Below, piece after piece: positions 35,652-64,000 of a stretch of 64,000 nt of DNA. The notes under the pieces are model-generated. The model had not been told where the DNA came from. It ran no database searches and saw only the letters and a list, made by a program, of their open reading frames with translations. A program made the translations under genes and the position numbers. Source of the stretch: Massalongia carnosa (taxonomy: Eukaryota); contig OZ287075.1 in NCBI GenBank assembly GCA_965645245.1, positions 744,001-808,000 of the forward strand. Reading direction: 5' to 3'. Every line of letters starts with the position of its first letter. Positions within the stretch are counted from its first letter, which is position 1.

Positions 35652-36271
35652 TTTTTTATTTTATTTATTCATTAAGTGTATTCAACTTAAGGTTATGACA
35701 CTAAACTATTTTAGGATATTTTTCTATAATACAAATAAATCAACCCTTTATAACCCATCTATGTAACCCGAAAAACTTGTCGCGAAAATGACTACACTAG
35801 AACAAACAAACGCGCTCTCGAGAGCGCACAGCGAAAGGAGGGAATGTTTACACGTAAAGATCAAGAAGTATCTTGATCGAGTGTGCACCGTTGGTGACCC
35901 GGAGGCGTTGCAGTTGCCGAGAAACTCAGCGGAAATTTTGCAAGCGCAAAATCTAGTCGATGACAAAGTTGCAGAAACTCCCAACAACATAGGTGACACA
36001 TTACAGGCAATCCAACAATCATTGACACGCATAGAGCGCAATGAGACCACTCCTCGCAGCTATGCCGCTGCTGCTACAAGGCAAGGCCGAGATGAGCCCG
36101 CACTCCCAAAGAACCAAAACGTCAAGCCTCAACAGGCCCGCAAAGACAAAGCACCCACACCAAGAGAAGCGCGACGTGCCCGGGAAATGACCGTTCACAT
36201 CACGGAGGATGCGGACAAGGAAAAAATAAAGCTAATGCCAACCAAGGAGTTAGTAGAAACACTACAAAATG

Positions 36272-37212
36272 TGTCACGATTCTACACGGCACGACCTCGG
36301 CACTCGGCACCGCCTAGGGCAATCGTAGATGGAACACGCAGGCGATTTCGATTTCGTTCCCGCAGCTGCTAGAAGGTTCCATGACGACTATACCACATGG
36401 GTACTAGCGCTGTAGAGGATATATAGGGGCAGGTTCTGGTTGTCGATTGTCTTTTTCCTTCTTCATCTTTATTGCATTCGTTTCTAGTGTCCCTATGACT
36501 TGTCTCTAGGTAGATCATAACATTACAATAAAGATCGTCTTCATCTATTATCCTACGTGAGGGATGTAAAAGAACTCACCGAATCGAGGACTGAAGAAAG
36601 AACGACCCTTTCATTAGGCAAGTCGTACGAACCAGAGCCAGAACCACCAGAACCAGAAGGCCGCCATCCCTAAAGCGTGGCACCCAGAACCAGAACCAGA
36701 ACCAGAACCACCAGACACCAGACACCAGAAACCAGACAGCAGGCACCAGACACCAGACACCAGACCCCAGACACCAAAGTACTGACTGCACCGAAATTAC
36801 CGGAAAATCGACGAAAGAGCTTGGAAAGACACGGGAAACCTTGGCAAAGAATCGGAAGCACTTCAGCTAATGAACCAGTTTCACCGCTGACTACTGACTG
36901 CCTGCACCGCTTGCACCGCCTAGTTCGCGCTCAGGTGATCGCGATTTAAAGCGAAGGGTAGTGTCACGATTCTACACGGCACGACCTCAGCACTCGGCAC
37001 CGCCTAGGGCAATCGTAGATGGAACACGCAGGCGCTTTCGATTTCGTTCCCGCAGCTGCTAGAAGGTTCCATGACGACTATACCACATGGGTACTAGCGC
37101 TGTAGAGGATATATAGGGGCAGGTTCTGGTTGTCGATTGTCTTTTTCCTTCTTCATCTTTATTGTATTCGTTTCTAGTGTCCCTATGACTTGTCTCTAGG
37201 TAGATCATAACA
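36272..37212 (+). mobile_element. Non-autonomous miniature LTR retrotransposon (TRIM-like, 941 bp)
   Basis: 251-bp LTRs at 36272-36522 and 36962-37212 (3 differences), TG...CA; TSD AAATG at 36267-36271 / 37213-37217; 439-bp non-coding interior; PPT gcgaagggtag. Confidence 0.95.
36628..36777 (+). repeat. (CCAGAA)n/(CCAGACA)n minisatellite inside the miniature LTR element
   Basis: Directly visible degenerate 6-7-bp tandem units. Confidence 0.85.
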
Positions 37213-38217
37213 AAATGGAGCTGAAGGAATAAGGGGAGTGTCGCGTTTGTTAAACGGCGACATCAGGATTCACGCAGAGTCATTGGAAGCAAAGAAGACC
37301 CTGCAGGAGAAGACCGATTGGACCCGCATGGTGGCCGCCTCAGCTGCGGTGCACACCCGCACCTTCACCGTAAGAGCGAATGGAATCAGGGTGGAAAACA
37401 TCAAATTGGCCAATCAATCAACAGCCATCACCTACCTTCAGGCCGCTAACGCACGCCTGCACCCTAACCTGAAGATCGTCAAAGTAGCCTGGTCAATCAA
37501 GGCCATTAGAGAGAAAAAAGCGTACTCGACGCTTCATATAGAGGTCGCCACCGCCGAGATGGCTAACCGGCTCATCACCGAGGGCCTAATGGAAAGCTAC
37601 GAAATAAAGGACTGCGAGCGCTTCACACGTGGTTGCACCATGACTCAATGCTTCAACTGCCAAAAATACGGACACATCGGTAGAGTATGCCGCAATCCCG
37701 CCGCCTGTGGTCACTGCGCCGGTGGACATCAAAGCAAAGAATGTAATCTGGAGACAACGGGGGAATACCGCCGTTGCGCCGTATGCGGAGAGAAAGGACA
37801 CGAAGCATGGTCCACAGCATGCAAAGTCAGATTAGCTGAAAATCGAAAAACTGAAATAGCAATGCAATACCGCGCCCCCCTCTATGCAATTGAATCACAG
37901 CCGCCCTCATTTCATTTTCAACTTAAACGAGAGTCGACACCCATAGTCACACAAACGGACGAAATTCCGTCAACGTGGAAGATAGTAAACGGCAAAAAAA
38001 GAAAAATACACAACGCTACGCCCTCATCCGGCACACCCCCGGGCCCTCATCGGGGAGACGACGCACCTACCTGGGCTAATATAGGCATCATGAATCCTGA
38101 AAATATGGTAAAAACCTTAGCAAAACCAGTGCTGGGTAGGCCTCGTGCAGATTCCGTAGCATTAACGGCAGGAACTCAGGTCACATCGAACACAGCGGCC
38201 GAAACGATGGAAATCCT

Positions 38218-41200
38218 ATGAGGGACACAAAATCCCTCTCTATATTGCAGTATAATGTCAGAAATGACAGAGTGAGTACTATTATACCCCTCTTAGCAGA
38301 CACAAACACCCAGGACTATGATATTATTGCAATACAGGAACCGTGGCGCAATCCATCCTCCCCCACATCGCTTAGTTCTCATCAAAGCGGCTTTCACCTC
38401 CTATACCGCCCAGGAGGTGACACCAGAGTGTGCATTTATGTCAACGACCTAATAGACACTGACAGCTGGGAGGTGGAATTCACCTCGGCCGACATGTGCA
38501 CTTTGAAAATAAAGACCTACACCGAAGGCGTTATGGAAACAATTCACGTCTATAATGTGTATAATCCCTCTCCCGCTTCCTATTCATCCACTGACAGTCC
38601 CACGACCTTACCGGCGGCTCGGAGCATGCTTACCGCCGATGCGCATCACATACTACTTGGAGATTTCAACCTGCATCATCCCTTTTGGAATGGTCCCTCA
38701 AGACCCACACAACACGCTGCTGCTGATCAATTACTGGAAATAATCGATGATCATAATCTTTCGTTGACACTGCCGAAAGGCACCGTAACATGGGAAGCAA
38801 GAAACACGTCTAGCACGATAGATTTGGTTTTCATTTCAAAATACCTAGTCGAATGACTCGAACACTGCATGTCCAGACCAGAATTGAATCAATCGTCCGA
38901 TCACGTGCCGATATCAACCCGCATCCTACTCGGAAGCGAGCCGCAACCGAAAATCAAACTCAGAGCATGGAAACATCTAAACCTGGAAAAATTAAGGGAG
39001 GCCGAACGACACGCCCCTATACCGGAGTCTCCCCGTACCACTGCCGAGATTGATGCGTACACGGAATCGATTCAAAAATTTCTACAAAATGTCATCAACG
39101 AAGCAGTTCCATGGGCAAAATCTAGCGAATATGCTCAGCCATTCTGGACAGAAGAATGCAGCATTGCAACCAAAGCCACACGGAAACTACGCCGCATATG
39201 GTCCAGCACGTTAGACCTAACGGACTGGTCTAACTATATGAAATCCAATGATAAAAAACAGAAAATCATTCAAAAGGTAAAGAGAATAAACTTTCGTCAA
39301 GAAATCAATAAGGCCACCGAAACGCCTCAGGGACTATGGCGGCTAGCGAAATGGGCCAAAGACAAAAGGCATCAATCTAGAGAAGTATCCAAAATGCCGA
39401 TTTTAAAATTCAATAACCAAGTAGCAGACACGTTTGACCAAAAAGCCGAAATGCTGAAAGATGTCTTCTTTCCCGCACCACCACCGGCCGACCTAAGCGA
39501 CATAGAAGGATCCTTCTATCCTACATCGCCGCACTGCCCAATAACTATCACCAATTCAGAAGTATCGACGGCCCTGAGTCGGCTCAAGTCCGATAAGGCA
39601 CCGGGCCCAGACGGCATATCTAACAGAATACTCAAAGCATGCAGCGAAATACTTGTCGAACTACTAACACCTCTGTTTCAGGCGTGCGTCACACACTCGT
39701 AGCACCCGCGGGCCTTCAAAATGGCAAACACAATAGCGCTGAAAAAAATAGGTAAAGGAGACTATAGCACGCCGAAAGCCTACCGACCAATTGCACTGCT
39801 CAACACGCTCAGTAAAGTTATTGAATCCATCATTGGATCGAAATTAACCTATCTGGCGGAAAAACACCGGCTCCTACCCGATAGACAGATGGGAGCAAGG
39901 AAGGGCAGATCCACAGAGTCAGCACTGGAACTGCTAACTGAACAGGTTCACACGATTTGGGGACAGGGAAAAGACAAAGTAGCCAAACTGCTAAGCATGG
40001 ACGTCGCCGGCGCGTTCGATACGGTATCACATCAACGACTAACACACAACCTACGGAAAAGAAAAATTCCAAAATGGATCACCGACTGGTTAAACAGCTT
40101 TCTGAGCGATCGAAGCACCACTTTAGCAATAAATCGAAAAGTCACTGGGCGGTTTGCGGTAAGAACGGGTATCCCACAGGGCTCTCCCCTGGCATCCATT
40201 CTTTACCTATTTTACAATGCATATCTATTGGAAATATGTGATCGACCAGGCAAAAACACAAGTGCCATAGGATTCGTAGACGACGCAAACATTTTGGCAT
40301 ATGGAAAAAGCACCAAGGAAAACTGCAAAACTCTAGAGGCAATACACAGACAATGTGAGACGTGGGCTTCCCGGCACGGGTCCGTATTCGATCCGACGAA
40401 GTACGAACTCATACACTTGTCTAGAAATCCCAAAAGATTCAACATGACTGCATCCATCAATATTGCTAGCACCGAAATTGATCCTAAAACGGACATCAGA
40501 GTATTGGGCCTACAAATCGAAACCAAATTGAAATGGGGACCGCACGTTCGCAAAACGCAAGAGAAAATGGTCAAACAATCCATGGCATTGACAAAAATTT
40601 CCACATCATCCTGGGGTACCAACTTCGCCAAGGCAAGGCAGGTATACAGTGCCGTGGTGCGTCCGGCCATGACATATGGATCGACCGTATGGCACATGCC
40701 CAAAGAAGTCAAAAAGTCAAAAACGTCAACGAGCAAGCTCTCCGTCATGCAAAACAATTGCCTTCGCACCATAGCCGGTGCCTTTAATGCCACTCCCATC
40801 TCAGTACTAGAAGCAGAGACATTCATAGCGCCCATAGACACGAATCTCGACATGCTACAAGCACAGGCAAGGCACCGGCTCCGAGCCGGAGGCCAATTGA
40901 AGATCATCTCCTCCGCATGCAACAAAATAGCTGACAAACTTCGAGGCAAGGCAGGTCGCAAACGACTTCAAAAGCCCACCCCGGGAGAGCTAAAACACAT
41001 CTGGGCCAAAAGCCTACTGATCGACTCAAAAATAGTTCAGCCACCAAAGGCACACCCACCATGGTTCGAAGTTTACCCGGCGTGGCACCGCGAAGCTACC
41101 GTTGCGGCAACGGCCCGACACAAGCAGATGCAAACAATCAAAACACGACAAATAAAGGTCTGGAACGACTCGTGGTGCGCATATCAAAATCGCGTCATCG

Positions 41201-41571
41201 AACCCTCCATAGCACAATCAGTCCCACTGACCAAAAAACGGCTGAAAATACACACGCAGCTAAAAAAGGCAGAAAGCGCTCTAACAACTGAAATCCGCAT
41301 TTGCAAAATCGGGTTAGCTGACTTCCTCTACAAGCGACGGGTGCCCTCCGTCACCTCACCGGCCTGTTCATGTGGCTGGCACAAACAAAATCCAGAACAT
41401 GTAATCATGTTCTGCAGACTTATTCACAATAGAGAACAGATGTTTCGCGCCACCGGCACGAGCGACTATCAGCAGCTGACCAAATCATCAAAAATTCTGA
41501 AGATACTAACTGCTTGGCTAATGAAAACAGGTTTATTGTATCAATTCTCACTAGCATCAACATTATTGTAA
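38218..41571 (+). pseudogene. LINE B ORF2 (AP endonuclease, RT, CCHC; no RNase H) with two in-frame stops
   Basis: ORFs 38218-38856, 38869-39702 and 39721-41571 share one frame; IQEPW, GDFN, SDH, GIPQGSP, FVDD and CSCG...HVIMFC motifs; ATGA overlap with the ORF1 stop. Confidence 0.93.
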
Positions 41572-43360
41572 AATCAACAATAGTTGAACCTTTCTTTCTT
41601 TCTTCTCTTTTCACAAGGCATTACAGTTTTTTTTATTTATTTATTCATTAAGTGTATTCAACCTAAGGTTATGACACTAAACTATTTTAGGATATGTTTC
41701 TATATTACAAATAAATCAACCCTTTATAACCCATCTATGTATTGTCAATTTTTCCCTATTTTTACTCGGTGTTAGTAACAACCTATAGTAATCGAAGAAT
41801 ATCGATTTTAAAATTTGTCTTTGTAAGTTCGTGAATGTTTCAGCAGAAATCGTTTCTGATTTTACTGTTCGATCTCTCCCCAACCTCCAGTTTCGAAAAT
41901 CTCGTCATCAAGCTGATCTAGTATCCATTTTCTTTTCGCGATTTTGTTATTGACAATGAATTTAATCAAAATGTCATTTCCCATTTTTGAATTAAACAAC
42001 ATATTCAAATTGATCGTAGTATCGATATTTTGTATCATGTTTTGAATTTCATCGAAATAGTGAATGCAATTCAATAACAAGTGTTCTGGCGTTTGTCGTT
42101 GATTGTATCGATTTGTGCATTTTGACGAATTATAATCTTTCAATCGCTGTAAATATGATCGAAAATAGCCGTGTCCGAATTTTAATTGCATAATAGTAGC
42201 AAATATCAATTTGGAACAGTTATTTGATAAATAATAAAATCTCGATATGCCAGGTTTCATTTCGAATTTCTCGTAGTATTTGCCTCTTGATTTGCATTGT
42301 TGCCATTGATTCGTCTATTTAGTTAGCATATTTTGATTTATTTGATCTTTTACATAATCAAATGTAATCGCCGAGGACTCGACTAGGATTTGATTATGGC
42401 CCGTCTTTGCTATATTGTCTGTAATTTAGTTTTCGGTAATATTCGAATGACTCGGAACCCATTGCAAAATCACCTGAAAATTGCTTTCAAATAAGAGTTT
42501 TGCGAGCTTTCGAATTTGTCTGGCGAAAATATGATTTGTCAAGTTCTGAATTTCGTTTATCGCGCTTATACTATCAGAAAAAATCCAAATCGTTTTTTCT
42601 AAGTTCGATAAAATATTAGTATTCGACAATTTATAGACCCATTTCATTGCTTGTAAAATCGCATGCAGTTCAACATTTTTAATGTTGACTGTTTGCTTAA
42701 TTTCCAGCTTTCCGAAATCGTATGATACTTGATCAGACAATCTTTTTCGATAAATCGATTAAAATTATTGATAATATTACTCCAATTCCTTATAATTGGC
42801 GCAAATGTGACTGCAGACGTTGCAAATTCGATTTTCGATCCATCTGTATAAAGTAAAACTCGGGATTTATCGGAGTTCATTGATTTAATTTTGGATAAGG
42901 TAGAATAATAACTTGATTTAGCAGATTCCTTTGTATTTTCGATTTGAAATTTGATTTTGCAAGGCGATTTCCATGGTTTAATAAAATGACTTGATTGTTC
43001 AAATTCATCAGTTTTGTGAACTATGTCGGAAACGGAATGAAGAACGCGAATAAGCTGACTAGGATGTCGTTTATTTGTTTATTTGTCGTCTTCGTTCCAT
43101 TCAGCATATTTGTTGTTCCATTTTTTTTTTATTTTTTTATTTATTCATTAAGTGTATTCAACCTAAGGTTATGACACTAAACTATTTTAAGATATGGTTT
43201 TATTTTACAAATAAAGCAACCCTTTATAACCCAACTATCTATCGTCAATATTGCCCCGTTTTTACTCCGTGTTAGTAACAACCTTTAGTAATCGAAATAT
43301 CGATTTTACAATTTGTTTTTGTAAAGCTCGTAAATATTCCAGCATAAATCATTTCTAATT

Positions 43361-46300
43361 TTACTGTTCGATCTCTCCCCAACCTCCCGTTTCGATATTT
43401 TCGTCATCGAGCTGACCTAGCATCCATTTTCTAGTCGCGATTTTGTTATCAACAATAAATTTAATCAAAATATTATTTCCGATCCTAGTATTAAACAACA
43501 TTTTTAAAGTAATTGTGGTATCGATATTTTGTTTCATGTTTAGGATTTCATTTGAATAATGTATGCAATTCATCAATAAGTGTTCTGGCGTTTGACGTTC
43601 GTTGCAGCGCCCTGTGCATTTTGACGAATTATAATCTTTCAATCGGTGCAGATATGATCGAAAATAACCGTGTCCGAATTTCATTTGCATAATAGTCGCA
43701 AATATTAATTTCGAACAATTATTCGACAGATAATAAAAACTCGATTTGCCCGGCTGCATTTCGAATTTCTCATAGTATTTGCCTTTTGACTTGCATTGTT
43801 GCCATTGATTCGCCCATGTGGCTAACATATTTCGATTTATTTGACCCTTTACATAATCAAATGTTATTATCGAAGACTCGACTAGGATTCGACTATGTCC
43901 CGCTTTTGCTGCTTTATCTGCAATTTCATTTTCGACGATTTTCGAATGACTAGGAATCCATTGTAGAACCACCTGATAATTGTTTCCGAATAAGCATTTC
44001 GAGAATTTTCGAATTTGTTTTGAGTAAGTATGATTTGTCAAGTTCTGAATTTCGTTTATCGCGTTTATGCTATCGGAAAAAATCCAAATCGTTTTTTCCA
44101 AATTGAAGAGATTATTCGCAATTGTCAATTTGTATGCCCATTTTATTGCTTGTAGTATCGCATAGAGTTCGGCGTTTTTAATGCTTGACTGTTTGTTTAA
44201 TTTCCAGCTTTTCGAAATCGTATGATGTTTGAGGAGACAATCTTTTTCGATAAAACGATTGAAGTTATCGGTGAAATTGTTCCAATTTCGCATAATTGGT
44301 GCAAATGTGACAGCGGAAGTTGAAAACTCGGTTTTTGATCCATCGGTATAGAGTAACATTCGCGATTTATCGGCGTTTATTGATTGGATTTTTGATAAAG
44401 TCGAATAATAACTTGACTTTGCTGTTTCTTTGGATCTTTCGATTTGGAACTTGATTTTACAAGACGGCTTCCATGGTTTGATGAAATTATTTACTGATTC
44501 GAATTCATCAGTTTTGTGAACTATATCCGAAACGGAATGAAGAATACGGATAAGCTGACTAGGATGAGGTTTACTCGATTTTTTCTCGTCTTCGTTCCAT
44601 TCAGCATATCTGTTGTTCCATAAACTAGTGTCAAAACCGATGTTTTCGAATTTCACAGAATAGGTACTGGGAATTCTTTGACAAATAGGATTATTTTCGG
44701 CAATCTTCAATAATCGAATTGCGTATATTTGATTTTTCATCAACAATCGTAGCTTGGCTGGTAAAATATGCGATTCAATTTCCATCGCCTGAACAGGCGT
44801 GGTTTTGAATGTGCCTAAAATCTTTCGAATCATTCGATTTTGCAGATTCTGAAATAGCTTTTCATATTTCTTTTGACCGTTATACCAGATTTCTGAGCCA
44901 TAGTCCGAAATAGGAATAATACATGACAGATAGAGCTGTCTGCATGCAGTTGGCTTTAGTCCCCATTCAGACTTCATCAAATTTTGAATTGCGAAAAACG
45001 ATCGATTTGCAGAAGCAATTCGCGTTTCGACGTGTTTTTTGTAATTTAGTTTTCGGTCTAACCAGACTCCTAACCATTTGACAGAATTTTTCGGTTCTAG
45101 TATTGTCCCGTTTGGTAATTGCACTTTGTCTTTTGATGCATTTCTTGACTTTTCGAAGTGAATCAACTCAGATTTGTCGTCATCAAATTTGACATTATTC
45201 GTTGCGGCCCAATCAAAAGCTGTTTTGACGATAATTTCGATTTCTTTGCAATTCTGTGTGGCAGTTTTATTTTCGACATATATTGCAACATCGTCTATAA
45301 AGCTAGGTGAATGAGCATTGAATTTCATTCGTATTTTCGGGAATAAGTAACGAATATAAATCAGAAATAGAATTGGCGAAATAGGTGAACCTTGTGGAAT
45401 TCCAGATTCGATATAGTACGTTTTGCTTTTGTGTTCATCGAATATCAAATTGATCGATCGTTTTGTCATAAAATGCTTGACCCATTGAATAACTATGCGA
45501 GATAAATGCAGCTTTTTCATAACATTTAGCAATTGATTAATCGAAACAAAGTCAAATGCTCCTTTGACATCGAGTAATAGACATGATAAAACGTTTTTGT
45601 TTCGGTTTGCGATTTCGATATCATGAACTACGTTCATTACCGCATCGATTGCAGAATGATTTTTCCGTCCGCCCATTTGTTCGGTATCTAACAAGCTCGA
45701 ATTTTCGCCGAGGTAGGCTAGTCGATTAGCAACTATTTTCTCCGCAATTTTACCAAGACAATTCAGTAAGGTAATAATTCGATATGATTTTGGCAGCGAG
45801 TAGTCTGGTTTATTAGGTTTTTTTAAAACAGCACCGAGTCCTGTTCGCCAACATAACGGGTGATAACCGATTTGTATAAACTTAGAATAAATAGTAAAAA
45901 ACACGTTTTTCAATTGTTGAAACGATTTTTGAATTATTGTGAAATTGATTGCATCAGGTCCACATGATTTCTTTGGATTAAACAAACTAATCGCATTTTG
46001 CAATTCATTTTCGGTTAAATTCGGCCAATTGTTGTCATTTTCGCTGTCTTGATTCGTTAAATCTTCAATTTTATCATCCGTGAACGGGTTTTTTGTGTAC
46101 ATTGCTGACACAAACGCATCACATTTGTGATCGAATTGAACATTTAACTTATTTTCATATTGAATAGGTGGTATTTTTTCGAACATGCGCGGTTTAGTGT
46201 ATTTATAAGCTGTAAATACGTCTTTATTCGCTGAGTTTTCAAGGAAAGCCAACCAAGTTTGCTGTTTCGCTTTTCGAATTGCATGAAAGTACTCGATTCG

Positions 46301-47374
46301 ACTATGTCTAAATGTTTGATGACTAAAATAGGACGGATTATTCTTCCATTCTCGACGATGTCTGCACATGATTTTTCGAAGTCCGGATAAATCTTGCGAC
46401 CACCAATTTTTCGATTTTGCGCATATTTTTGTCTTCGGAATAAACATTTCAGCCGCGTTTTTGATAACGTTTTGCAAATATAACGCTGATTCATCAAATT
46501 GATAATTGTTCAATAGACTTTGTATTTGGGACTCGTAGTTTACTGCATTTTCGTCTAGAAACTTCGCGAATTTATCCCAATCGGCTTTATTGCAGTTGTA
46601 TTTATTCGATAATGCGGTTGCGTGTGACGTCAAGTTCTTGAAAGACGCGATAAGTTCAAATCGAATAACTTCATGATCTGAACCCGTGACTGCGTTTTCA
46701 TCGATTGACCAATTTGTAATTGCGTTTTCGATTTTAGAATTTGCAAATGTTAAATCAATAATAGATGAAGAGTTTCCTGAATGAGCAAAAAATGTATATA
46801 GATCAGGCGTGTTTATCAAACTACATTTGTTTAATTTTAACCAATTGACTAGATTTTCTGATCGAATTGCATTTTGAATCTTCGAATTCCACCAGCTATG
46901 ATGTGCATTGAAATCTCCACATATGACAAATTGATCAGTTGATATAGGTTGATATTTAACTAAAAGTCGATCGATTGTATATGTTTCTCGATCGTTTAGA
47001 CTTTTTTCATTGTAAAGGTTAAAGATCTGCACTTTTCGAACTTCATCAATTGTAATTTCGATAATTTGCAGATCAGTATCGTTTATAAGATCCGTTCTAG
47101 GCGTGCATTGTAATTTTGGATTGCATTTTGTAACGAATATAGCTACTCTCGGCCGATAAGTCGCTATTTTCGGCATAATACATGTGAATGACGGATGGGA
47201 AATTGTTTTTTGATCTCGCGTCCATGGTTCCTGAAATAAAACAATATCAACACGATTTAATACTGCATATTCCAGACACGAAATCATTGCATTCGTTGAC
47301 TTTGCACAATTATGTTGAATAAATTTGACATTTTGTGTATTTTCGATATTTGTCAACGAATGTTGTCCCGCCAT
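43361..47374 (-). CDS. LINE ORF2 polyprotein: AP endonuclease, reverse transcriptase, RNase H, CCHC finger (1337 aa)
   Basis: FQEPW, GDFNAHH, IDLTF, GSDH; YRIITLLN, GIPQGSPISP, FIDD; YTDGS, AEL, FSDS, WIPSH, NEIADKAAK; C...QTPEHLLMNC. Confidence 0.97.
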   Translation of the reverse strand: MAGQHSLTNIENTQNVKFIQHNCAKSTNAMISCLEYAVLNRVDIVLFQEPWTRDQKTISHPSFTCIMPKIATYRPRVAIFVTKCNPKLQCTPRTDLINDTDLQIIEITIDEVRKVQIFNLYNEKSLNDRETYTIDRLLVKYQPISTDQFVICGDFNAHHSWWNSKIQNAIRSENLVNWLKLNKCSLINTPDLYTFFAHSGNSSSIIDLTFANSKIENAITNWSIDENAVTGSDHEVIRFELIASFKNLTSHATALSNKYNCNKADWDKFAKFLDENAVNYESQIQSLLNNYQFDESALYLQNVIKNAAEMFIPKTKICAKSKNWWSQDLSGLRKIMCRHRREWKNNPSYFSHQTFRHSRIEYFHAIRKAKQQTWLAFLENSANKDVFTAYKYTKPRMFEKIPPIQYENKLNVQFDHKCDAFVSAMYTKNPFTDDKIEDLTNQDSENDNNWPNLTENELQNAISLFNPKKSCGPDAINFTIIQKSFQQLKNVFFTIYSKFIQIGYHPLCWRTGLGAVLKKPNKPDYSLPKSYRIITLLNCLGKIAEKIVANRLAYLGENSSLLDTEQMGGRKNHSAIDAVMNVVHDIEIANRNKNVLSCLLLDVKGAFDFVSINQLLNVMKKLHLSRIVIQWVKHFMTKRSINLIFDEHKSKTYYIESGIPQGSPISPILFLIYIRYLFPKIRMKFNAHSPSFIDDVAIYVENKTATQNCKEIEIIVKTAFDWAATNNVKFDDDKSELIHFEKSRNASKDKVQLPNGTILEPKNSVKWLGVWLDRKLNYKKHVETRIASANRSFFAIQNLMKSEWGLKPTACRQLYLSCIIPISDYGSEIWYNGQKKYEKLFQNLQNRMIRKILGTFKTTPVQAMEIESHILPAKLRLLMKNQIYAIRLLKIAENNPICQRIPSTYSVKFENIGFDTSLWNNRYAEWNEDEKKSSKPHPSQLIRILHSVSDIVHKTDEFESVNNFIKPWKPSCKIKFQIERSKETAKSSYYSTLSKIQSINADKSRMLLYTDGSKTEFSTSAVTFAPIMRNWNNFTDNFNRFIEKDCLLKHHTISKSWKLNKQSSIKNAELYAILQAIKWAYKLTIANNLFNLEKTIWIFSDSINAINEIQNLTNHTYSKQIRKFSKCLFGNNYQVVLQWIPSHSKIVENEIADKAAKAGHSRILVESSIITFDYVKGQINRNMLATWANQWQQCKSKGKYYEKFEMQPGKSSFYYLSNNCSKLIFATIMQMKFGHGYFRSYLHRLKDYNSSKCTGRCNERQTPEHLLMNCIHYSNEILNMKQNIDTTITLKMLFNTRIGNNILIKFIVDNKIATRKWMLGQLDDENIETGGWGEIEQ

Positions 47375-48957
47375 TAACCAAGCATTAATTCATCATTCGA
47401 TTTTCTAGGATTTAGCGAGATAAACATTTCGCAACCTATATCGTTCGATTGATGATTTTTGTTGCAATTGACGCATTTCAGAATTGCATGTGCGCATGCG
47501 ATTTTAGACTTGCATGTTGTGCATTCATGATTATGCGTTTCATGACTTTGTGCGCATATATTGCATTTTGCCGGACTTTTGCATTGATAATGCTTATGTC
47601 CAAATTTCTGACAATTAATACATTGCGTGTTTGGACGAACGGAAGCAAATATTTCCGTGTCACAATGTCTACCCGCGATATTCACGCCTCTTAACGCGTT
47701 TGACGCTTGATTTTGATTATTGAAAGTCAAAACTACCGACGACGTGACTTTGTTTTGACGATCCCGAGCAAGCCATCTTGGTAAATCGCATAGTTGCATA
47801 TTCGAATTGTATTTTTCGATTTCGGTTTGCAAATATTGCATGTTATTATCGAATAACGAGATATTTACTCCGTGTGCTATGACTTTAAACCAGGATTCTT
47901 CTTTTCGAATACTTTGTGATTCGAAAATGTGTTCCCATGAAGATTTATTTTTCAACAATTCTTCGGCATTGTTGTCAGGGCTAGTGGTGAGAACGATATT
48001 CTGACCGGTTTTGGACTTTTCAACAGTATTGACGATGATGTTTAAATTTGCGTTTTTTAATAGCGCGTTAATTTGATCACGCAACTTCATAGAGTCGATT
48101 TGAGCGTCAGGATTTTTCGGTGAAATCACGAGTCGTCTGGCCTTGATTGCATCAAATCGATCGACTTTGTTCGAATTATAATTCGAACTTTTCCTTTGAA
48201 TAGTAGTCCAATTTTCGGAGTTTTCGGTTGCTTTTCCAAGCATTTGACTCCATGTACCGGTTGTGCTAACATTGTTACCAGAGACCCCGGTAGCTCCTTT
48301 GCGAATGGTCTGATTTTCGATAATTGAATTTTCGTTCAATTTAACAACAGGTTTTTGGATTTTTGGACCATTCTGTAGTGGAGTCGTTTGTTGTTGTGAC
48401 GTTTTGGATGAAAGATGACTAGTTTGATCAAGTACTATGCCCATTTTATAGTTAATCATATCTAAGGATGTTTGTAAATTGATTGATTTTTTCGAAATCA
48501 ACGAATTAACGTTGTCAATTACGATAGCCGTTTGTGGATTTTGGTCCAGTACAAATGATTGCAATAATGCTTTTTTGGCCGACTTTAGAAGCTCAATTGA
48601 ATTTGTCCGATTGATCGCTTCTTGGCTATCTCTCGAATGTTCGTCAAATGTGCGTCTTTTATTTCGTTTGATTGGTGGGCTTGATCCAATGTTTAAGTTC
48701 AATGAAGGCATCGGCAAGATAGTGGAAAATGGACCCGATGGGAATTTCGTTGCCTTTGGTGTCGGTGATGACGGGGCTGATGCATATTCGCGAGTTTGAT
48801 CCATAGGTTCAAGACGGGGAGAGCTCCCTATCAACGCCACCGGAGATGGTCCGGGGGAGTGTCGGGGGGGGGCCGGGTAATGGGTCGATAGGGGGGCGGG
48901 ACCGGCTGGGGGTGGTGTCCTTGGTATATTCCGGCGGTTCATTACCGCGTTAAACAT
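47374..48957 (-). CDS. LINE ORF1 gag-like nucleic-acid-binding protein (527 aa)
   Basis: Pro-rich N-terminus and C-terminal CCHC knuckles (CINCQKFGH, CNICAQSH, CVNCNKNH); TAATG overlap with ORF2. Confidence 0.95.
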   Translation of the reverse strand: MFNAVMNRRNIPRTPPPAGPAPLSTHYPAPPRHSPGPSPVALIGSSPRLEPMDQTREYASAPSSPTPKATKFPSGPFSTILPMPSLNLNIGSSPPIKRNKRRTFDEHSRDSQEAINRTNSIELLKSAKKALLQSFVLDQNPQTAIVIDNVNSLISKKSINLQTSLDMINYKMGIVLDQTSHLSSKTSQQQTTPLQNGPKIQKPVVKLNENSIIENQTIRKGATGVSGNNVSTTGTWSQMLGKATENSENWTTIQRKSSNYNSNKVDRFDAIKARRLVISPKNPDAQIDSMKLRDQINALLKNANLNIIVNTVEKSKTGQNIVLTTSPDNNAEELLKNKSSWEHIFESQSIRKEESWFKVIAHGVNISLFDNNMQYLQTEIEKYNSNMQLCDLPRWLARDRQNKVTSSVVLTFNNQNQASNALRGVNIAGRHCDTEIFASVRPNTQCINCQKFGHKHYQCKSPAKCNICAQSHETHNHECTTCKSKIACAHAILKCVNCNKNHQSNDIGCEMFISLNPRKSNDELMLG

Positions 48958-49886
48958 GGATTTATAAATAAATCGATGTTGCCTTTGCTATATCCCCTTT
49001 ATCGCCACCAAATAATTTATTCTGACGTTCCCCGGACGTAATAGTCAGAATAGAGAGTTTTTACACCGATTTACTGGTCTAAAGACTCTTGCTTTCCAAA
49101 CCCTATTTATTTGACAATAACAAGTCAAATAAATCCTAGTCGAGTTAAAATAGACCGTTCCTCGCTTAGGCAATAGATCTTATTTAACTCTTTACCTTGA
49201 CACTACGATATATGGAATATAATAAGAATTTTACGATCGAACAGAAAAATTTTTTTTTTTTTTTTTTTGAAAAATGTTTTTGATCCAGAAATAAAAATCA
49301 AGTACAATGAGAGAGAGGAGACTTCCTATTCTGGTTAGCCTGAAACAGGGCCTTTGGTTTAACCCTATTTCAGACGTTTCTCCCCTTCGTTTCAGCAGAT
49401 TGTTGGTCGGCAGTTCAACGAAAATCGAAAAAACCCAAAATGGAATAGTGTATACGGTACCGGTAACCTTAAATTTCAAATAAACACCAAGAAGTTTTGT
49501 TGTCTCGAGAACAGGTTGTACAGTTACGCGACAGTGATGATATTTTGTAGATAATTTTTGTGATAATAGATGAGATCTATGCGACAATTAAACCGAAGAA
49601 ATATCGAAAATCGAGCGATTTTTGACGTTGTTGTTGGTGTTTTTGTGTTTTGTAGAATTTTTGGACGCGCTTTTTGGTGAAGGGGCGGACAGACCGCGAG
49701 GAAAACTCTGCAGGAGCAGTGGAAGAGCTCTCCTGTACCCAATTCTGATGGGTTTTAGCTTCTGGTAGGCTCAAATGAATGAGAAGAATGAGGAGAATAA
49801 GTTGGGAAAGTTTCAGTATATCAAAATATAGGGTACCGATGTTTTGGGGGTTGGCTTATTGCTGATGAGTTCAGATTACTGTGCAC
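48958..49886 (-). promoter_or_regulatory. Long structured AUG-free 5' leader of LINE A1
   Basis: No ATG on the sense strand by manual scan; stems with compensatory changes against the A2 leader at 58524-59435. Confidence 0.75.
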
Positions 49887-50969
49887 TTTGTTGTTCCATA
49901 AACTTGTGTCAAAACCGATATTTTCGAATTTTATCGAATATGTGTTTGGAATTCTTTGACAAATAGGGTTATTTTCGCCAATCTTCAATAATCGAATTGC
50001 GTATTTTTGATTTTGCATTAATAATCGAAGTTTAACTGGTAAAACATGTGATTCAATTTCCATCGCCTGAACAGGTGTGGTTTTTAAAGTTCCTAAAATC
50101 TTTCGAATCATTTGATTTTGTAGGTTCTGAAATAGTTTTTCATATTTCTTTTGACCATTATACCAAATTTCTGAGCCGTAGTCCGAAATAGGATTAATGC
50201 AAGACATATAGAGCTGTCTGCATGCGGTCGGTTTCAGACCCCATTCGGATTTCATCAAATTCGGAATTGCAAAAAACGATCGATTCGCAGAAGAGATCCG
50301 CGTTTCGACGTGTTTTTTGAAATTTAGTTTTCGGTCTAACCAGACGCCCAACCATTTGACTACATTTTTCGGTTCTAGTACTGTCCCGTTTGGTAATTCC
50401 AATGTGTCTTTCGATACATTTCTTGTCTTTTCGAAGTGAATCAGCTCGGATTTATCGTCATCAAATTTGACATTATTCGATGCGGCCCAATCAAAGGCCG
50501 TTTTGACTATGATTTCGATTTCTTTGCAATTCTGTTTTGCAGTTTTATTTTCGACATATATTGCAACATCGTCAATAAAACTGGGGGAAAGTGCATTGAA
50601 TTCATTCGTATTTTCGGAAACAAGTGACGAATCTAAATCAGAAATAGAATAGGCGAGATTGGTGAGCCTTGTGGAATTCCTGATTCGATATAATATATTT
50701 TGCTTAAATTTTCATCAAATATCAAATTGATCGATCGTTTTGTCATAAAATGCTTGACCCATTGAATTATTATGCGAGATAATTTCAGCTTTTTCATGAC
50801 ATTTAGCAGTTGAGTAATCGAGACAAAGTCAAATGCGCCTTCGACATCGAGTAATAAACATGATAAGACGTTTTTATTTCTATTTGCAATTTCAATATCA
50901 TGAACAACGTTCATTACTGCGTCAATTGCAGAATGATTTTTGCGTCTGCGCATCTGTTCGATATCGAGC

Positions 50970-55700: not shown

Positions 55701-58700
55701 TTGAACAATTGTAAAATTGATTGCATCAGGTCCACATGCTTTCTTCAGATTAAATATATTAATCGCATTTTGCAGCTCGTTTTCGGTCAAATCTGGCCAA
55801 TTATCATCTTTTTCGCTGTCTTGATTTTGTAAATCTTCGACATTATCGTCTATAAATGGGTTTTTATTGTACATTGCTGACACAAACGCAGTCCGAAGAC
55901 TAAAATCGGACGGATAATTCTTCCATTCTCGACGATGCCTGCACATGATTTTTCGAAGTTCGGTTAAATCTTGCAACCACCAATTTTTCGATTTTGCACA
56001 TATTTTGTTTTCGGAATTAACATTTTAGCCGCGTTTTGATAATTTTTTGCAAATATATCGCTTATTCTTTGAATTGATGATTATTCAATAAAATCTGTAC
56101 TTTTAATTCGTAGTTGATTGAATTTTCGTCTAGAAACTTCGCGAATTTATTCCAATCGGCTTTATTGCAATTATATTTATTCGATAATGCGGTTGCATGT
56201 GACGTCAAATTCTTGAAAGATGCGATTAGTTCAAAGCGGATGACTTCATGATCTGAACCTGTGACTGCGTTTTCATCGATTGCCCAGTTTGTAATTGCAT
56301 TTTCGATTTTGGAATTTGCAAATGTTAAATCAATAACAGATGATGAACTCCCAGAATGTGCGTCGAATGTGCATAAATCAGGTGTGTTTATCAAACTACA
56401 TTTGTTTATTTTCAACCATTTGACTAAATTTTCTGATCGAATTGCGTGTTGAATTTTTGAATTCCACCAGTTATGATGTGCATTGAAATCTCCACAAATG
56501 ACGAATTGATTAGTTGATGTAGGTTGATATTTGATTAAAAGTCGATCGATCGTGTATGTTTCTCGTTCATTTTGACTTTTTTCTTTATAAATTTTGAAAA
56601 TCTGCACTTTTCGAACTTCATCAATTGTAATTTCAATAATTTGCATATCGGAATCGTCAATAAGATCCGTTCTAGGCGTGCATTGCAGTTTGGGATTGCA
56701 TTTTGTGACAAATATAGCTACTCTCGAGCGATAAGTCGCTATTTTCGGCATAATGCATGTAAATGACGGATGTGATATTGTTTTTTGATCTCATGTCCAT
56801 GGTTCCTGAAACATAACAATATAAATTTGATTTGATAAAGCAAATTCCAAACACGAAGTCATTGCATTCGTTGACCTTCCACAGTATTGTTGAATAAATT
56901 TGACATTGTGAGTATTTTCTATATTTGCCAACGAATGCTGTCCTGCCATTATAAGGCGGATAATTCGTCAGCCGATTTATGTGGATTTAATGCAGTAAAC
57001 ATTTCACAATATTCATCATTTGATTGATGATTTTTATTGCAGTTTGCACATTTCACAACAACGTGTGCACACGCAGTTTTCGATTTGCATGTTATGCATT
57101 AATGATTACGTGTTTCATGATTTTGTGCACAAATATTACATTTTGATTTGTTTCGACACTGATAATGCTTGTGTCCGAATTTTTGACAATTAATACATTG
57201 TGTATTCGGACGAACGGAAGTAAATATTTCCGTGTCACAGTGTTTTCCCGCGATATTTACGCCTTTTAACGCGTTTAAGGCCTGATTTCGATCGTTAAAA
57301 GTCAAAACGACCGAAGAATTGACTTTATTTTCGCGGTCTCGCGCTAGTCATCTGGGTAAATCGCATAATTTCATGTTAAGGTTGAATTTCTGGATTTCAT
57401 TTTGCAAATATTGCATATTTTGATCAAACGTTGCAATATTTACTCGATGTGCGATCACTTTAAACCAGGATTCGTCTTTTCGAATTCTTTGTGCATCGAA
57501 CATATGTTCCCATATAGATTTGTTTTCCAACAATTCTGCAGCAGTGTTTTTCGAACTAGTAGTGAGAACGATATTCTGACCGGTTTTCGATTTTTCGACC
57601 GTGTTGATTACGATATCTAACTTCGCGTTGCTGAATTGCGCGTTGATTTGATCTCGAAGTTTCAATAAGTCGATATCGCCGATTTGAATTTTTGGTGTAA
57701 ATATCAGTCGTCTGAGTTTGATTGCATTTAATTCGTCGGTTTTGTCGAATTTGTTCGAGGTTTGACTCGAATTTTTCGATCTGGAAACAGTGGTCCAATT
57801 TTCGGAATTCGCAGTTGCTTTTCCAAGCATTTGACTACAGGATAGAGGCGTGTTATTGACCTTTGTACTCGTAACCCCGGCGGTTTCCTTTCGTGCGTTC
57901 GTGTTGACGACTTTATTTGGATTTTCAGTCGTATTGACTTGTTGAACCCGAGTCGATTTTCGCGTTGTTTCTGAGGTTTGATTACTAATCTGATCAATTA
58001 CCTTGTCCAATTTCCAATTCATCATGTCTAGTGTTGTTTTGATATTAATTGATTTTTTTGTCAATAAGGAATTGACATTATCAATGACTATTGCTGTTTC
58101 TGGATTTTGATCTAAGACAAATGACTTCAATAACGCGGTTTTAGCCGTTTTGAGTAATCCAATCGATTGTGCTCGATTGATTGCTTCTTGGCTTTCCTCT
58201 ACTCGTTCGTCGAATGTTTTTCGTTTGTTACGTTTGATAGGCGGGCTTAATTCTATATTAGAATTTAACGATGGCATGGGTAGATTGGTAGTAAATTGTC
58301 CAGATGGGAATTTGGTTGCTTTTGGGGTCGGCGTAGTCGGGGCGGACGAATATTCATGTGATTAATCCATAGACTCGTCAACTACAGGCGATTTTTCTAT
58401 AAGTCCTACTGACGAGAGCCCCGGAGATTCCATTTGGGGATGGTTTTGAGGAGTGCTCAGGGGTGTTCCCGGGGAGGCTCTAGATATAATTCGTCGAGTT
58501 CTAGGGAGTACCGGATTGAACATGATGTAATAAATAAATCGATATGCCTTTTCAATATCCCTTTTATCACCACCAAATAATTTAATTCTGATGTTCCCCG
58601 GACGTACTAATCAGAATAGAAATTTACACCAATTTACAGGTCTAACGACTCTTGCTTTCCTATCCCTATTTATATGACAATAACTCGTCAAATAAATCCT

Positions 58701-59435
58701 AATCGGGTTAAAATAGACCGTTCCTCGCTTAGGCAGTAAACCTTATTTAACCCTTTACAGATACTACAATAGTTGAAAATAATGAAAGTTTTTTTTTGCT
58801 TTTTTGTGATAAAAATATATCTAAGGCAAGGTAAGATAAAAAGAGACTTCCTATTTTGATTAATCTGAAATAGGATCTTTGGTATAATCCTATTCCGGAC
58901 GTTTTTCCCCTTCTTTTCAGTGATCTGTTGACCGGCCGTTCAATGGAGATCGATAAAGCCTAAAATGGTATATGCAGAAATTATACGTGAAATATACTGT
59001 GAAAATTTGTGCTTGCGGAAGTTCCCGTAACCTTAAATGAGAAATGAACTTCAAAAAAGTTGGTCGTCGCGACAGTTGTTGTACGGTACCGCGACAGTAG
59101 ATATTTTTTGTAGATAATTCTTGTAGTAATAATTGAGGGTAATGCGACAACAGAACAGAAGAAAGTGAGAAAAAAGAGCGATTTTTGGTGATATTGTTGG
59201 TATTTGTTGTTTTTTATAACTTCTTGAGCGCGCTTTATCACGTCTGTCGCGTGCGACCAGCAGAAAATCTCTGCTGGAGCTTTGCTAGAGCTCTCCTACA
59301 CTCAATCTGAGTCCGTTTTTGCTCTGGAGGAGCTCAAATGACTAAGAAAGAGATGTTCAATTGACTGTGAAAGTTATAGAGTATCAAAAGTTGCGGTACT
59401 TGTGTTTCGATAGGTGGTCTTTGGTGTTTTTATCC

Positions 59436-60092: not shown

Positions 60093-63000
60093 TAAACTTG
60101 TCGCGAAAATGACTACACTCGAACAAACAAGCGCTCTCGAGAGCGCACAGCGAAAGGAGGGAATGTTTACAAGTAAAGATCAAGGAATATCTTGATCGAG
60201 TAGGCACCGTTGGTGACCCGGAGGTGTTGCTGTTGCTGAGAAACTCGGCGAAAATTTTGCAAGCGCAAAATCTAGTCGATGACAAAGTTGCAGAAACTCC
60301 CAACAATATAGGTGACACATTACAGGCAATCCAATAATCATTGACACGCAAAGAGCGCAATGAGACCACTCCTCGCAGCTATGCCGCTGCTGCTACAAGG
60401 CAAGGCCGAGATGAGCCCGTACCTCCAAAGAACAAAAACGTCAAGCCTCAACAGGCCCGCAAAGACAAAGCACCCACACCAAGAGAAGCGCGACGTGTCC
60501 GGGAAATCACCGTTCACATCACGGAGGATGCGGACAAGGAAAAAATGAAGCTAATGCCAACCAAGGAGTTAGTAGAAACACTACAAAATGGAGCTGAAGG
60601 AATAAGGGGAGTGTCGCGTTTATTAAACGGCGACATCGGGATTCACGCAGAGTCATTGGAAGCAAAGAAGACCCTGCAGGAGAAGACCGATTGGACCCGC
60701 ATGGTGGCCGCCTCAGCTGCGGTGCACACCCGCACCTTTACCGTAAGAGCGAATGGAATCAGGGTAGAAAACATCAAAGTGGCCAATCAATCAACAGCTA
60801 TCACCTACCTTCAGGCCGCTAACGCACGCCTGCACCCTAACCTGAAGATCGTCAAAGTAGCCTGGTCAATCAAGGCCATTAGAGAGAAAAGAGCGTACTC
60901 GACGCTTCATATATAGGTCGCCACTACCGAGATGACTAACCGGCTCATTACCGAGGGACTAATAGAAAGCTACGAAATAAAGGACTGCGAGCGCTTCACA
61001 CGTGGTTGCACCCTGACTCAATGCTTCAACTGCCAAAAATACGGACATATCGGTAGAGCATGCCGCAATCCCGCCGCCTGTGGTCACTGCGCCGGTGGAC
61101 ATTAAAGCAAAGAATGCAGTCTGGAGACAACGGGGCAATACCGCCGTTGCGCCGTCTGCGGAGAGAAGGGACACGAAGCATGGTCTACAGCATGCAAAGT
61201 CAGATTAGCTGAAAAGCGAAAAACTGAAATAGCAATGCGAAACCGCTCCCCCCTCTATGCAATCGAATCACAGCCGCCCTCATTTCAATTTCAACTTCAA
61301 CGAGAGTCGACAACCGCAATCACACAAACGGACGAAATTCCGTCAACGTGGAAGATAGAAAACGGCAAGAAAAGAAAAATATACAACGCTACGCCCTCAT
61401 CCGGCACACCCCCGGGCCTTCATCGGGGAAAGGACGCACCTACCTGGGCTAATATAGGCATCATGAATCCTGAAAATATGGTAAAGGCCTTAGCAAAACC
61501 AGTGCTGAGTAGGCCTCGTGCAGATTCCGTAGCATTAACGGCAGGAACTCAGGTCATATCGAACACAGCGGCCGAAACGATGGAAATCGTATGAGGGACA
61601 CAAAATCCCTTTCTATATTGCAGTATAATGTCAGAAATGACAGAGTGAGTACTATTATACCCCTCTTAGCAGACAAAACACACCCAGGACTATGATATTA
61701 TTGCAATACAGGAACCGTGGCGCAATCCATCCTCCCCCACATCGCTTAGTTCTCATCAATGCGGCTTTCACCTCTTATACCGCCCAGGAGGTGACACCAG
61801 AGTATGCTTTTATGTCAACGACCTAATAGACACTGACAGCTGGGAGGTGGAATTCACCTCGGTCGACAATTGCACTTTGAAAATAAAGACCTACACCGAA
61901 GGCGTTATGGAAACAATTCACGTCCATAATGTGTATAACCCCTCTCCCGCTTCCTATTCATTACTGACAGTCCCACGACCTTACCAGCGGCTCGTAGCAT
62001 GCTTACGGCCGATGCGCATCACATACTACTTGGAGATTTTAACCTGCATCATCCCTTTTGGAATGGTCCCTCAAGACCCACACAACACGCTGCTGCTGAT
62101 CAATTACTGGAAATAATCGATGATCATAATCTTTCGTTGAAACTGCCGAAAGGCACCGTAACATGGGAAGCAAGAAACACGTCTAGCACGATAGATTTGG
62201 TTTTCATGTCAGAATACCTAGTCGAAAGACCCGAACACTACATGTCCAGACCAGAATTGAATCAATCGTCCGATCACGTGCCGATATCAACCCGTATCCT
62301 ACTCGGAAGCGAGCCGCAACCGAAAATCAAACGCAGAGCATGGAAATATCTAAACCTGGAAAAATTAAGGGAGGCCGAACGACACGCCCCTATACCAGAG
62401 TCTCCCCGTACTACTGCCGAGATTGATGCGTACGCGGAATCGATTCAAAAATTTCTACAAAATGTAATCAACGAAGCAGTTCTATTGGCAAAATCTAGCG
62501 AATATGCTAAGCCATTCTGGACAGAAGAATGCAGCATTGCAACCAAAGCCACACGGAAACTACGCCGCATATGGTCCAGCACGTTAGACCTAACGGACTG
62601 GTCTAACTATATGAAATCCAATGATAAAAAACAGAAAATCATTCAAAAGGCAAAGAGAACAAACTTTCGTCAAGAAATCAATTAGGCACCCGAAATGCCT
62701 CAGGGACTATGGCGGCTAGCGAAATAGGCCAAAGACAAAAGTCATCAATCTAGAGAAGTATCCAAAATGCCGATGCTAAAATTCAATGACCAAGTAGCAG
62801 ACACGTTTGACCAAAAAGCCGAAATGCTGAAAGGTGTCTTCTTTCCCGCACCACCACCGGCCGACTTAAGCGACATAGAAGGATCCTTCTATCCTACATC
62901 GCCGCACTGCCCAATAATCATCACCAAGTCAGAAGTATCGACGGCCCTGAGTCGGCTCAAGTCCGATAAGGCACCGGGCCCAGATGGCATATCTAGTAGA

Positions 63001-64000
63001 ATACTCAAAGCATGCAGCGAAATACTTGTCGAACTACTAATACTTCTGTTTCGGGATTGCGTCATACACTCGTACCACCCGCGGGCCTTCAAAATGGCAA
63101 ACACAATAGCGCTGAAAAAAATAGGTAAAGGAGACTATACCACGCCGAAAGCCTACCGTCCAATTGCACTGCTCAACACGATCAGTAAAGTTATGGAATC
63201 CATCATTTGATCGAAAATAACCTATCTGGCGGAAAAACACCGGCTCCTACCCGATACACAGATGGGGGCAAGGAAGGGCAGATCCACAGAGTCAACACTG
63301 GAACTGCTAACTGAACAGGTTCACACGATTTGGGGACAGGGAAAAGACAAAGTAGCCAAACTTCTAAGCATGGACGTCGCCGGCGCGTTCGATACGGTAT
63401 CACATCATCGACTAACGCACAACCTACGGAAAAGAAAAGTTCCAAAATAGATCACCGACTGGTTAAACAGCTTTCTGAGCGATCGAAGCACCACTTAACA
63501 ATAAATCGAAAAGTCACTGGGCGGTTTGCGGTAAGAACGGGTATCCCCCAGGGCTCTCCCCTGTCAACCATTCTTTACCTATTTTACAATGCAGATCTAT
63601 TGGATATATGTGATCGACCAGGCAAAAATATAAGTGCAATAGGATTCGTAGACGACTCTAACATTTTGGCATATGGAAAAAGCACCGAGGAAAACTGCAA
63701 AACTCTAGAGGCAATATACAGACAATGTGAGAAGTAGGCTTCCCGGCACGGGTCCGTATTCGATCCGACGAAGTACGAACTCATACACTTGTCTAGAAAT
63801 CCCAAAAGATTCAACATGACTGCATCCATCAATATTGCTAGCACCGAAATTGAACCTAAAATGGATATCAGAGTATTGGGCCTACAAATCGACAACAAAT
63901 TGAAATTGGGACCGCACGTTCGCAAGACGCAAGAGAAAATGTTCAAACAATCCATGACATTGACAAAAATTTCCACATCAACCTGGGGTGCCACCTTCGC
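60093..64000 (+). mobile_element. Second, more degenerate LINE family B copy; runs off the window
   Basis: Colinear with 35773-40630 but without the LTR insert; ORF1 ATG at 60109, ORF2 ATG at 61591; many stops and frameshifts. Confidence 0.93.

Follow-up and report, generated by a model that had tools for sequence, protein, structure and literature searches.

A 29-nt hairpin (SL-A, 49152-49180, minus strand) in the leader of a non-LTR retrotransposon is in all likelihood a selected structure of the sense-strand RNA, judging from comparison of the element with its relatives. The element lies in the window, that is, the whole 64,000-nucleotide stretch of Massalongia carnosa DNA analysed here. 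SL-A is composed of a 5-bp stem (AGAUC/GGUCU), the loop UAUUGCCUAAGCGAGGAAC and an inner CCU/AGG helix, and LINEs whose ORF2 proteins are 27-47% identical carry it too, in sense orientation and 82-194 nt ahead of the start codon of ORF1. How APE-type LINE proteins single out the RNA of their own element (cis-preference) has long been an unsettled problem, and the recognition signals known so far are mostly those of R2 or sit in the 3' UTR. A leader hairpin as short and well delimited as SL-A, conserved through deep fungal LINE divergence, therefore offers a concrete handle for mutation, pull-downs and modelling. The hairpin appears to be undescribed so far; literature searches, which covered titles and the openings of abstracts, returned no description of a conserved leader hairpin in fungal LINEs.

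The host element, LINE A1, occupies 43122-49886 on the minus strand (6765 bp) and is bounded on both sides by a perfect 13-bp target-site duplication (TSD), ATGGAACAACAAA, at 49887-49899 and 43109-43121. Because the TSD, both ORFs and an A-rich tail at the 3' end are present, A1 is a complete, intact insertion, and since the TSD is perfect and neither ORF is broken, it would be a young and possibly active copy. ORF2 (43361-47374, minus strand, 1337 aa) contains APE endonuclease, RT and RNase H domains, with Pfam E-values of 1.5e-19 for Exo_endo_phos_2, 1.9e-35 for RVT_1 and 1e-9 for RNase_H. At E<=0.001 it has 59 relatives; the close ones that carry a name come from fungi (Lasallia, Sclerotinia, Pleurotus and Ceratobasidium). 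ORF1 (47374-48957, minus strand, 527 aa) is rich in Pro at its N-terminus and in putative Cys/His knuckles at its C-terminus, where three knuckle-like motifs were read from the translation. It is homologous to the ORF1s of related metagenomic loci, the C-terminal knuckle part being the part kept between A1 and the metagenomic element L034, and it matched no Pfam family at E<=0.001, zf-CCHC included. The APE/RT/RNase H ORF2, the two ORFs, the A-rich tail, the TSD and the fungal relatives are those of fungal Tad-like LINEs, and A1 is probably a "Tad-like" LINE. Upstream of ORF1 lies an AUG-free 5' leader of 929 nt (48958-49886, minus strand), whose 5' end was placed from the TSD and from the homology between A1 and another copy, A3. 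The family also deserves attention for its abundance in at least one sequenced organism: 1855 contigs of run X1 match window positions 48700-49830 (1.1 kb) at >=80% likeness, and the LINE family is extremely abundant in the organism of that run.

SL-A belongs to a conserved block that makes up the last ~260 nt of the A1 leader (48958-49215, minus strand). Three copies of the block are found in the window: that of A1; that of A2, a decayed element with broken ORFs (58524-58775, minus strand; SL-A at 58715-58743 and the hairpin H4, described below, at 58585-58617); and that of A3, an A1-like element with an internal deletion (11335-11598, plus strand; SL-A at 11375-11403, H4 at 11504-11536), which was missing from the earlier note on this DNA. 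A1 is identical to A2 at 219 of 258 positions (85%) and to A3 at 241 of 258. When the A1-A2 identity was computed along the element in 150-column bins, it amounted to 53-78% in the distal leader, 71% and 86% in the two bins of the block, 48-71% in the first bins of ORF1, 72-83% at the ORF1 C-terminus and 70-92% in ORF2. The block is thus kept better than the ORF1 N-terminus (85% vs 48-71%), as the earlier note had claimed; it is clearly better kept than its neighbours, is approximately equal to ORF2 and does not rise above the element as a whole. A run of ~21 A on the sense strand (~49247-49268, minus strand) divides the poorly kept distal leader from the block, and the A-runs at the matching site are shorter in A2 and A3; the distal part of the leader may have been added at the 5' end later on. 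Two cores previously described as invariant are so in all three copies: the 21-nt core has three exact matches in the window, where 0 of 100 shuffles gave any, and the 14-nt core has three matches against 0.08 expected.

The 21-nt core is the loop of SL-A. In an alignment of A1, A2 and A3 with three metagenomic elements (L034, L039 and L024), the lower stem takes the form AGNNN/NNNCU and is extended differently in each lineage; it is followed by a 5' asymmetric internal loop, UAYUG (UAUUU in L039), by the inner helix CCU/AGG (CCC/GGG in L039) with an AAGCG tip, and by a 3' AAC. The stems read AGAUC/GGUCU in A1, AGGUU/GGUCU in A2, AGGGU/GCCCU in L034 and AGAGU/GCUCU in both L039 and L024. Pairing is maintained in 47 of 48 cells (97.9%), compared to 33-54% in six slid controls. 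Three of the eight pairs have changed on both sides, and the covariation score was reached by 1 of 500 shuffles, a signal that would derive from few independent events, as the carriers form only four lineages when A1, A2 and A3 are counted as one. The closing pair is U·G in five of the six sequences and the next pair is U·G in three of six, and these are mismatches on the opposite strand. With the closing pair U·G in five of six, SL-A is predicted to form only on the sense strand, which argues against a site in duplex DNA, an antisense RNA and a hairpin in the first-strand cDNA. Between the A1 and L034 leaders, the sole significant match is a 19/19 segment of the loop (E 3.4e-6), the remainder being at chance level, and the corresponding match between A2 and L034 is 17/17. 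The loop is therefore an island of identity between stems that have drifted yet remain complementary, the classical mark of a loop that is read sequence-specifically.

The comparison set consisted of 77 metagenomic loci (678 kb) encoding ORF2 relatives at 24-50% identity. A fuzzy search of both strands with the 21-nt core gave two matches, L034 with 2 mismatches and L039 with 4, both in sense orientation. In both elements ORF1 and ORF2 are intact and the hairpin ends 145 and 166 nt, respectively, before the ORF1 AUG; the ORF2 proteins of A1 and L034 are only ~27% identical. A hairpin descriptor specifying a 5-bp stem and a loop ending in GGAAC additionally matched L001, L024 and L038, which constitute one family with a shorter-loop version; the hairpin ends 82 nt before the ORF1 AUG in L024 and L038, and no ORF1 was called in L001. 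To remove the circularity of a covariance model trained on all six sequences, a window-only model was built from A1, A2 and A3. It gave four matches in the 77 loci, of which the top two were L034 (30.8 bits, E 0.0058) and L039 (28.6 bits, E 0.018), each aligned exactly to the hairpin. The L024 family scored weakly with this model (16.2 bits, E 1.1), although it supplied the best match in each of its three loci, and its membership is proposed from position and from this top-match status per locus. With the six-sequence model (R1), SL-A of A1 scores 59.5 bits, and the additional matches were two decayed L001 copies, a second hairpin of L039 (20.9 bits) and a chance-level match in L021 (14.8 bits, E 6.4). 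The alignment of leaders from other LINEs, which the earlier note had proposed, thus brought out SL-A at the same place and on the same strand with covarying stems. The decayed L001 copies (4901-4939, plus strand; 3768-3806, minus strand) are L024-type hairpins with many G/C to A/T changes (GC 0.36 and 0.26), a pattern that looks like repeat-induced point mutation in that metagenomic fungus. An nhmmer search with the whole block found only the SL-A segment of L034 (E 0.022), the rest of the block having no detectable homologue outside the family. The exact 21-nt core had no match in collections of metagenome contigs and genome contigs, nor did a degenerate SL-A pattern in genome and viral contig collections; these collections contain hardly any fungi, so that the blanks carry little weight.

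Within the window, SL-A is enclosed by an outer 8-bp stem, H1 (49142-49190, minus strand; MFE -13.7 kcal/mol, z -3.14). The earlier note had reported a compensatory change here, and it is found: GAGTTAAA/TTTAACTC in A1 corresponds to GGGTTAAA/TTTAACCC in A2 (58705-58753), an A-U pair having become G-C, and the stem is partly broken in A3. A second reported change lies in H4 (49019-49051, minus strand), an 8-bp stem whose loop UAUUACGUCCGGGGAAC is the 14-nt core; ATTCTGAC/GTCAGAAT in A1 becomes ATTCTGAT/ATCAGAAT in A2 (58585-58617), with C-G replaced by U-A. In total, the window copies show three double-sided compensatory changes (H1 pair 2 and H4 pair 8 in A2, and H1 pair 1 in A3), two G·U-preserving changes in SL-A and, in the dead copies A2 and A3, six changes that break a pair. 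A1 and A2 differ at 8 of 84 paired positions versus 14 of 89 unpaired positions, counts that are approximate. The folding energy of the whole block gives no strand-specific signal (z -3.05 for the A1 sense strand, -4.87 for the A1 antisense strand), and the value for the A2 sense strand is not significant (z -0.17). RNAalifold, applied to the three copies, proposed a different long-range fold in which 1 of 65 pairs is compensatory.

The remaining hairpins of the block are confined to the LINE-A family. The AU-rich hairpin that had been noticed before, ATTTATTTGAC/GTCAAATAAAT, is present at 49105-49134 (minus strand) as H2, an 11-bp lineage-specific stem with one mismatch each in A2 and A3; a 30-nt fold overlapping it (49103-49132) has an MFE of -8.7 and a z of -4.79. 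The variants at >=5% near H2 in run X1 (49116, 49122 and 49123) all fall in the loop and none in the stem, and in the X6 contig one G-C pair of H2, mapped to position 49113, becomes G·U, so that H2 is mildly supported by variation. The interrupted hairpin H3 (49055-49088, minus strand; MFE -11.3, z -3.89), weakly supported in itself, is contradicted by the majority X1 variant 49065 A>G (186613 of 238600 depth), which breaks an inner pair. Neither H2 nor H3 has a counterpart outside the family. Run X1 shows no variant at >=5% inside SL-A or H4, an absence that is unselective because the adjoining 49124-49357 is also variant-free. In the single X6 contig (1131 nt), none of the 23 other letters and 16 gap letters falls inside SL-A or H4. 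The coverage by runs X7 and X8 (small shares) is limited to parts of 49316-49611 and 49688-49830, outside the block. The summed contig depth of X1 peaks over SL-A/H1 (810036 and 721439) and H4 (619552), compared to 26654-541758 in the other 27 bins, a depth that cannot rank gene parts.

Another finding is that a second GGAAC-loop hairpin lies ~60-100 nt downstream of SL-A in both the LINE-A and the L034/L039 families. The positional analogues of H4 are at 1093-1115 in L034 (AUAGAGC, loop AAAGGGAAC, GCUCUAU) and at 1190-1224 in L039 (AUAUAGGG, loop ending GGGGAAAA, CCCUAUAU); the stems are unrelated in sequence, and GGAAC or a near variant of it stands at the end of each loop. Over the whole region, 9 of 58 predicted pairs are compensatory between L034 and L039. 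On these comparisons, the second hairpin is probably also a selected structure on the sense LINE RNA. The loop-E-like AGUA/GAA pointed out earlier in A2 does exist there and is not kept elsewhere: the site reads UAGUAC only in A2, UAUUAC in A1 and AAUUAC in A3, and the loops of L034 and L039 differ. Consequently, the earlier description of the block as an undescribed cis-acting RNA holds for SL-A and, less firmly, for the H4 hairpin, but does not extend to H2, H3 or the loop-E feature, which are not kept beyond the family. A distal-leader hairpin with a GGGAAC loop in L008 and L004 was dropped from consideration, being not kept in the related L011. A search of the elements for a pairing partner of the GGAAC loops found no conserved GUUCC.

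No RNA family in Rfam accounts for SL-A. No Rfam family reached its gathering score in the whole window, and E-value scans of the A1 leader, of L034, L039 and L024, and of SL-A alone returned chance-level lncRNA, miRNA and snRNA rows or none, so that the Rfam scan suggested in the earlier note yielded nothing like SL-A. ARAGORN found no tRNA-like genes. HDV-like ribozymes and the Pr77 hallmark occur at LINE 5' ends, and SL-A shares with them the character of a conserved structured RNA in a LINE leader; however, they sit at the extreme 5' terminus and form a nested pseudoknot, whereas SL-A lies ~700 nt in and has no Rfam match. None of the HDV-like, hammerhead, twister, pistol and hatchet ribozymes of Rfam was detected at E<=10 in 48900-49850 or 49135-49200. 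The ribozyme previously offered as an option is therefore unsupported, no known class matching and the conserved unit being a 29-nt hairpin. Two possible resemblances of the SL-A loop, one to 5S rRNA and one to a conserved segment close to the LSU rRNA 5' end that is often used as a primer site in fungal barcoding, were dropped, as neither was backed by an Rfam match.

The leader of A1 contains no AUG in 929 nt; the expectation for the 896-nt part that was tested is 14.3 ATGs, and not one of 1000 shuffles had so few. Similarly, the A2 leader has none against 15.6 expected, and no AUG occurs within 751 nt (L034), 1120 nt (L039) or 565 nt (L024) upstream of the ORF1 AUG. Among 19 related leaders, 10 show AUG depletion (p<=0.05), and they include ones that lack SL-A. 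An AUG-free leader implies that ribosomes scan from the 5' end and makes a role as an IRES unlikely, and the depletion points to strict 5'-end scanning in this group of LINEs as the probable mode. The upstream AUGs that an IRES would tolerate do not occur in A1, and the translation element proposed earlier is, as an IRES, disfavoured. More broadly, the block could control translation, either as an IRES or as a structure that tunes whether the AUG of ORF1 is chosen as start codon. The distance from SL-A to that AUG is always 82-194 nt, and the AUGs of A1 and L024 have U at -3, which a helper element could compensate. The missing upstream AUGs, on the other hand, are the signature of scanning rather than of internal entry, and the individual hairpins fold at -5 to -14 kcal/mol; hairpins of such modest energy are too weak to stop scanning. 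Translation control is accordingly an unlikely function.

The reading that we prefer, which falls a little short of probable, is that SL-A is a sequence-specific protein-binding hairpin on the LINE RNA. The block would be the AUG-proximal part of the leader of the sense RNA, with SL-A as its working part. Ribosomes would scan through the modest hairpins of -8 to -14 kcal/mol to ORF1 with no internal entry, and the SL-A loop would be read sequence-specifically by a protein. The likeliest reader may be the element's own ORF1p, whose putative Cys/His knuckles would grip the unpaired G-rich loop in the way that retroviral nucleocapsid grips psi; that the partner is ORF1p specifically is possible, albeit rather doubtful. 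The RNA that has been freshly scanned and translated would thereby become the one that is coated and carried into retrotransposition, resulting in cis-preference or packaging. In retroviruses and LTR retrotransposons, psi packaging hairpins are bound by CCHC nucleocapsid. The last letters of the loop are GCGAGGAAC in SL-A and CCGGGGAAC in H4, and the two hairpins end 194 and 61 nt before the A1 ORF1 AUG, so that hairpins with unpaired G-rich loops lie, as in psi, between the 5' end and the AUG of a gag-like ORF. In both cases, short hairpins expose G-rich loops in the leader directly ahead of a gag-like ORF, the one of A1 ending in Cys/His knuckle-like motifs. In contrast to psi, the setting in A1 is that of a non-LTR element, which offers no dimerisation or primer-binding context, the binding is a prediction, and a GGNG tetraloop is much shorter and less conserved than the loop of SL-A. 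The G-rich unpaired loops, the adjacent ORF1 with its putative knuckles and the scanned leader together suggest a psi-like nucleation site for ORF1p. Among the three functions offered in the earlier note, a packaging signal is the most plausible, with SL-A acting through a putative binding of ORF1p. A parallel is found in stringent-type LINEs, whose RT is reported to recognise stem-loops of the 3' UTR (PMC4176376, PMC5135761). There, too, a small hairpin with a specific loop serves as an identity tag of the LINE RNA, but those hairpins are located 3', where reverse transcription starts, whereas SL-A is 5' of ORF1.

The distribution of SL-A bears on who reads it. In the remaining 72 of the 77 loci, the six-sequence model detected no comparable hairpin; among these are 15 elements that combine an ORF1 of >=400 aa with a leader longer than 300 nt. 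In an ORF2 tree of 32 rows, SL-A occurs in two separate, well-supported clades, A1+L001+L024 and L034+L039, a pattern that requires at least 2 changes, or ~7 losses if SL-A is ancestral. Thus, either an ancestral SL-A would have been lost ~7 times with replacement of the leader, or it would have moved or been captured twice. ORF1 similarities mirror those of ORF2, and hence nothing points to an exchange of a complete 5' module with ORF1 in it. Moreover, relatives lacking SL-A carry homologous ORF1s, and therefore LINEs of this group can do without an ORF1p-specific site. The hairpin also has no match in the second, GC-rich LINE family of the window and is thus not common to all LINEs of the genome; that family, which encodes APE and RT domains and an ORF1 with CCHC knuckles, is seen at 35788-41571 and 60341-63737 (both plus strand).

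With its scattered occurrence and near-invariant loop, SL-A also leaves room for the reading in which the block is a site for a host factor, or a mimic of a cellular RNA motif acting in export, stability or silencing evasion, that was acquired separately or passed between two lineages. The identity of the loop over 19 nt between elements whose ORF2s are ~27% identical, the tree with its two or more changes, and ORF1 relationships that follow ORF2 with no exchange of the entire 5' module are all in keeping with such an origin; no cellular RNA family matches, however, and leaders are reportedly replaced often in mammalian L1, which makes repeated loss plausible too. We regard this explanation as having a small probability. 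An improbable variant is that SL-A is a portable identity tag, its 19-nt loop being fixed by copying or by docking onto a highly conserved host component, and that unrelated LINE lineages captured or exchanged it independently of the ORFs; if true, it would explain both the identical loops in two clades and their absence from the lineages between.

Binding to ORF2p instead of ORF1p would make the block an R2-like 5' regulatory RNA that times second-strand cleavage or synthesis after first-strand copying. In R2, a structured 5' RNA joins the element's protein after the RT has removed the 3' RNA, whereupon second-strand cleavage starts (10.1101/2023.04.07.536001). SL-A occupies a comparable 5' position on the sense RNA, and both would be structured RNAs near the 5' end of a non-LTR element, acting in cis through the element's protein. 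However, R2 has a single ORF, a restriction-like endonuclease and a large multi-arm RNA, whereas A1 is an APE-type two-ORF LINE with a 29-nt hairpin; the likeness is one of position alone, and most ORF2 relatives lack SL-A. This alternative is quite improbable.

It is very improbable that the block has no function, having been kept by slow decay, a gene-conversion tract or chance, or that it is a self-cleaving ribozyme of an unknown class. The independent sequences are few, A2 and A3 are dead copies, and the identity of the block equals that of ORF2 without exceeding it; nevertheless, the window-only model recovers the hairpin of L034 and L039 where it is expected, the stems differ while the loops match, and no ribozyme class of Rfam matches. 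Least probable is a DNA-level element (an internal promoter, a transcription-factor site or an antisense promoter), for although the conserved sequence lies inside a LINE leader, where internal promoters lie, and the antisense strand folds well too (z -4.87), a duplex site gives no reason for covarying inverted repeats or one-strand G·U pairing, and the block starts >650 nt from the 5' end of the element.

The window as a whole is a nest of transposable elements. A Ty3/gypsy-type element with gag, protease, RT, RNase H and integrase occupies 25661-31319 (plus strand). Two more LINE-A-type copies stand head to head at 15208-19933 (minus strand) and 20650-23984 (plus strand), both 5'-truncated within ORF1 and hence leaderless. 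Finally, the A3 leader is interrupted at ~10706-10995 (plus strand) by a ~285-bp insertion that has a 5-bp duplication (ATTAT) as well as short terminal inverted repeats and, judged by eye, looks like a MITE.
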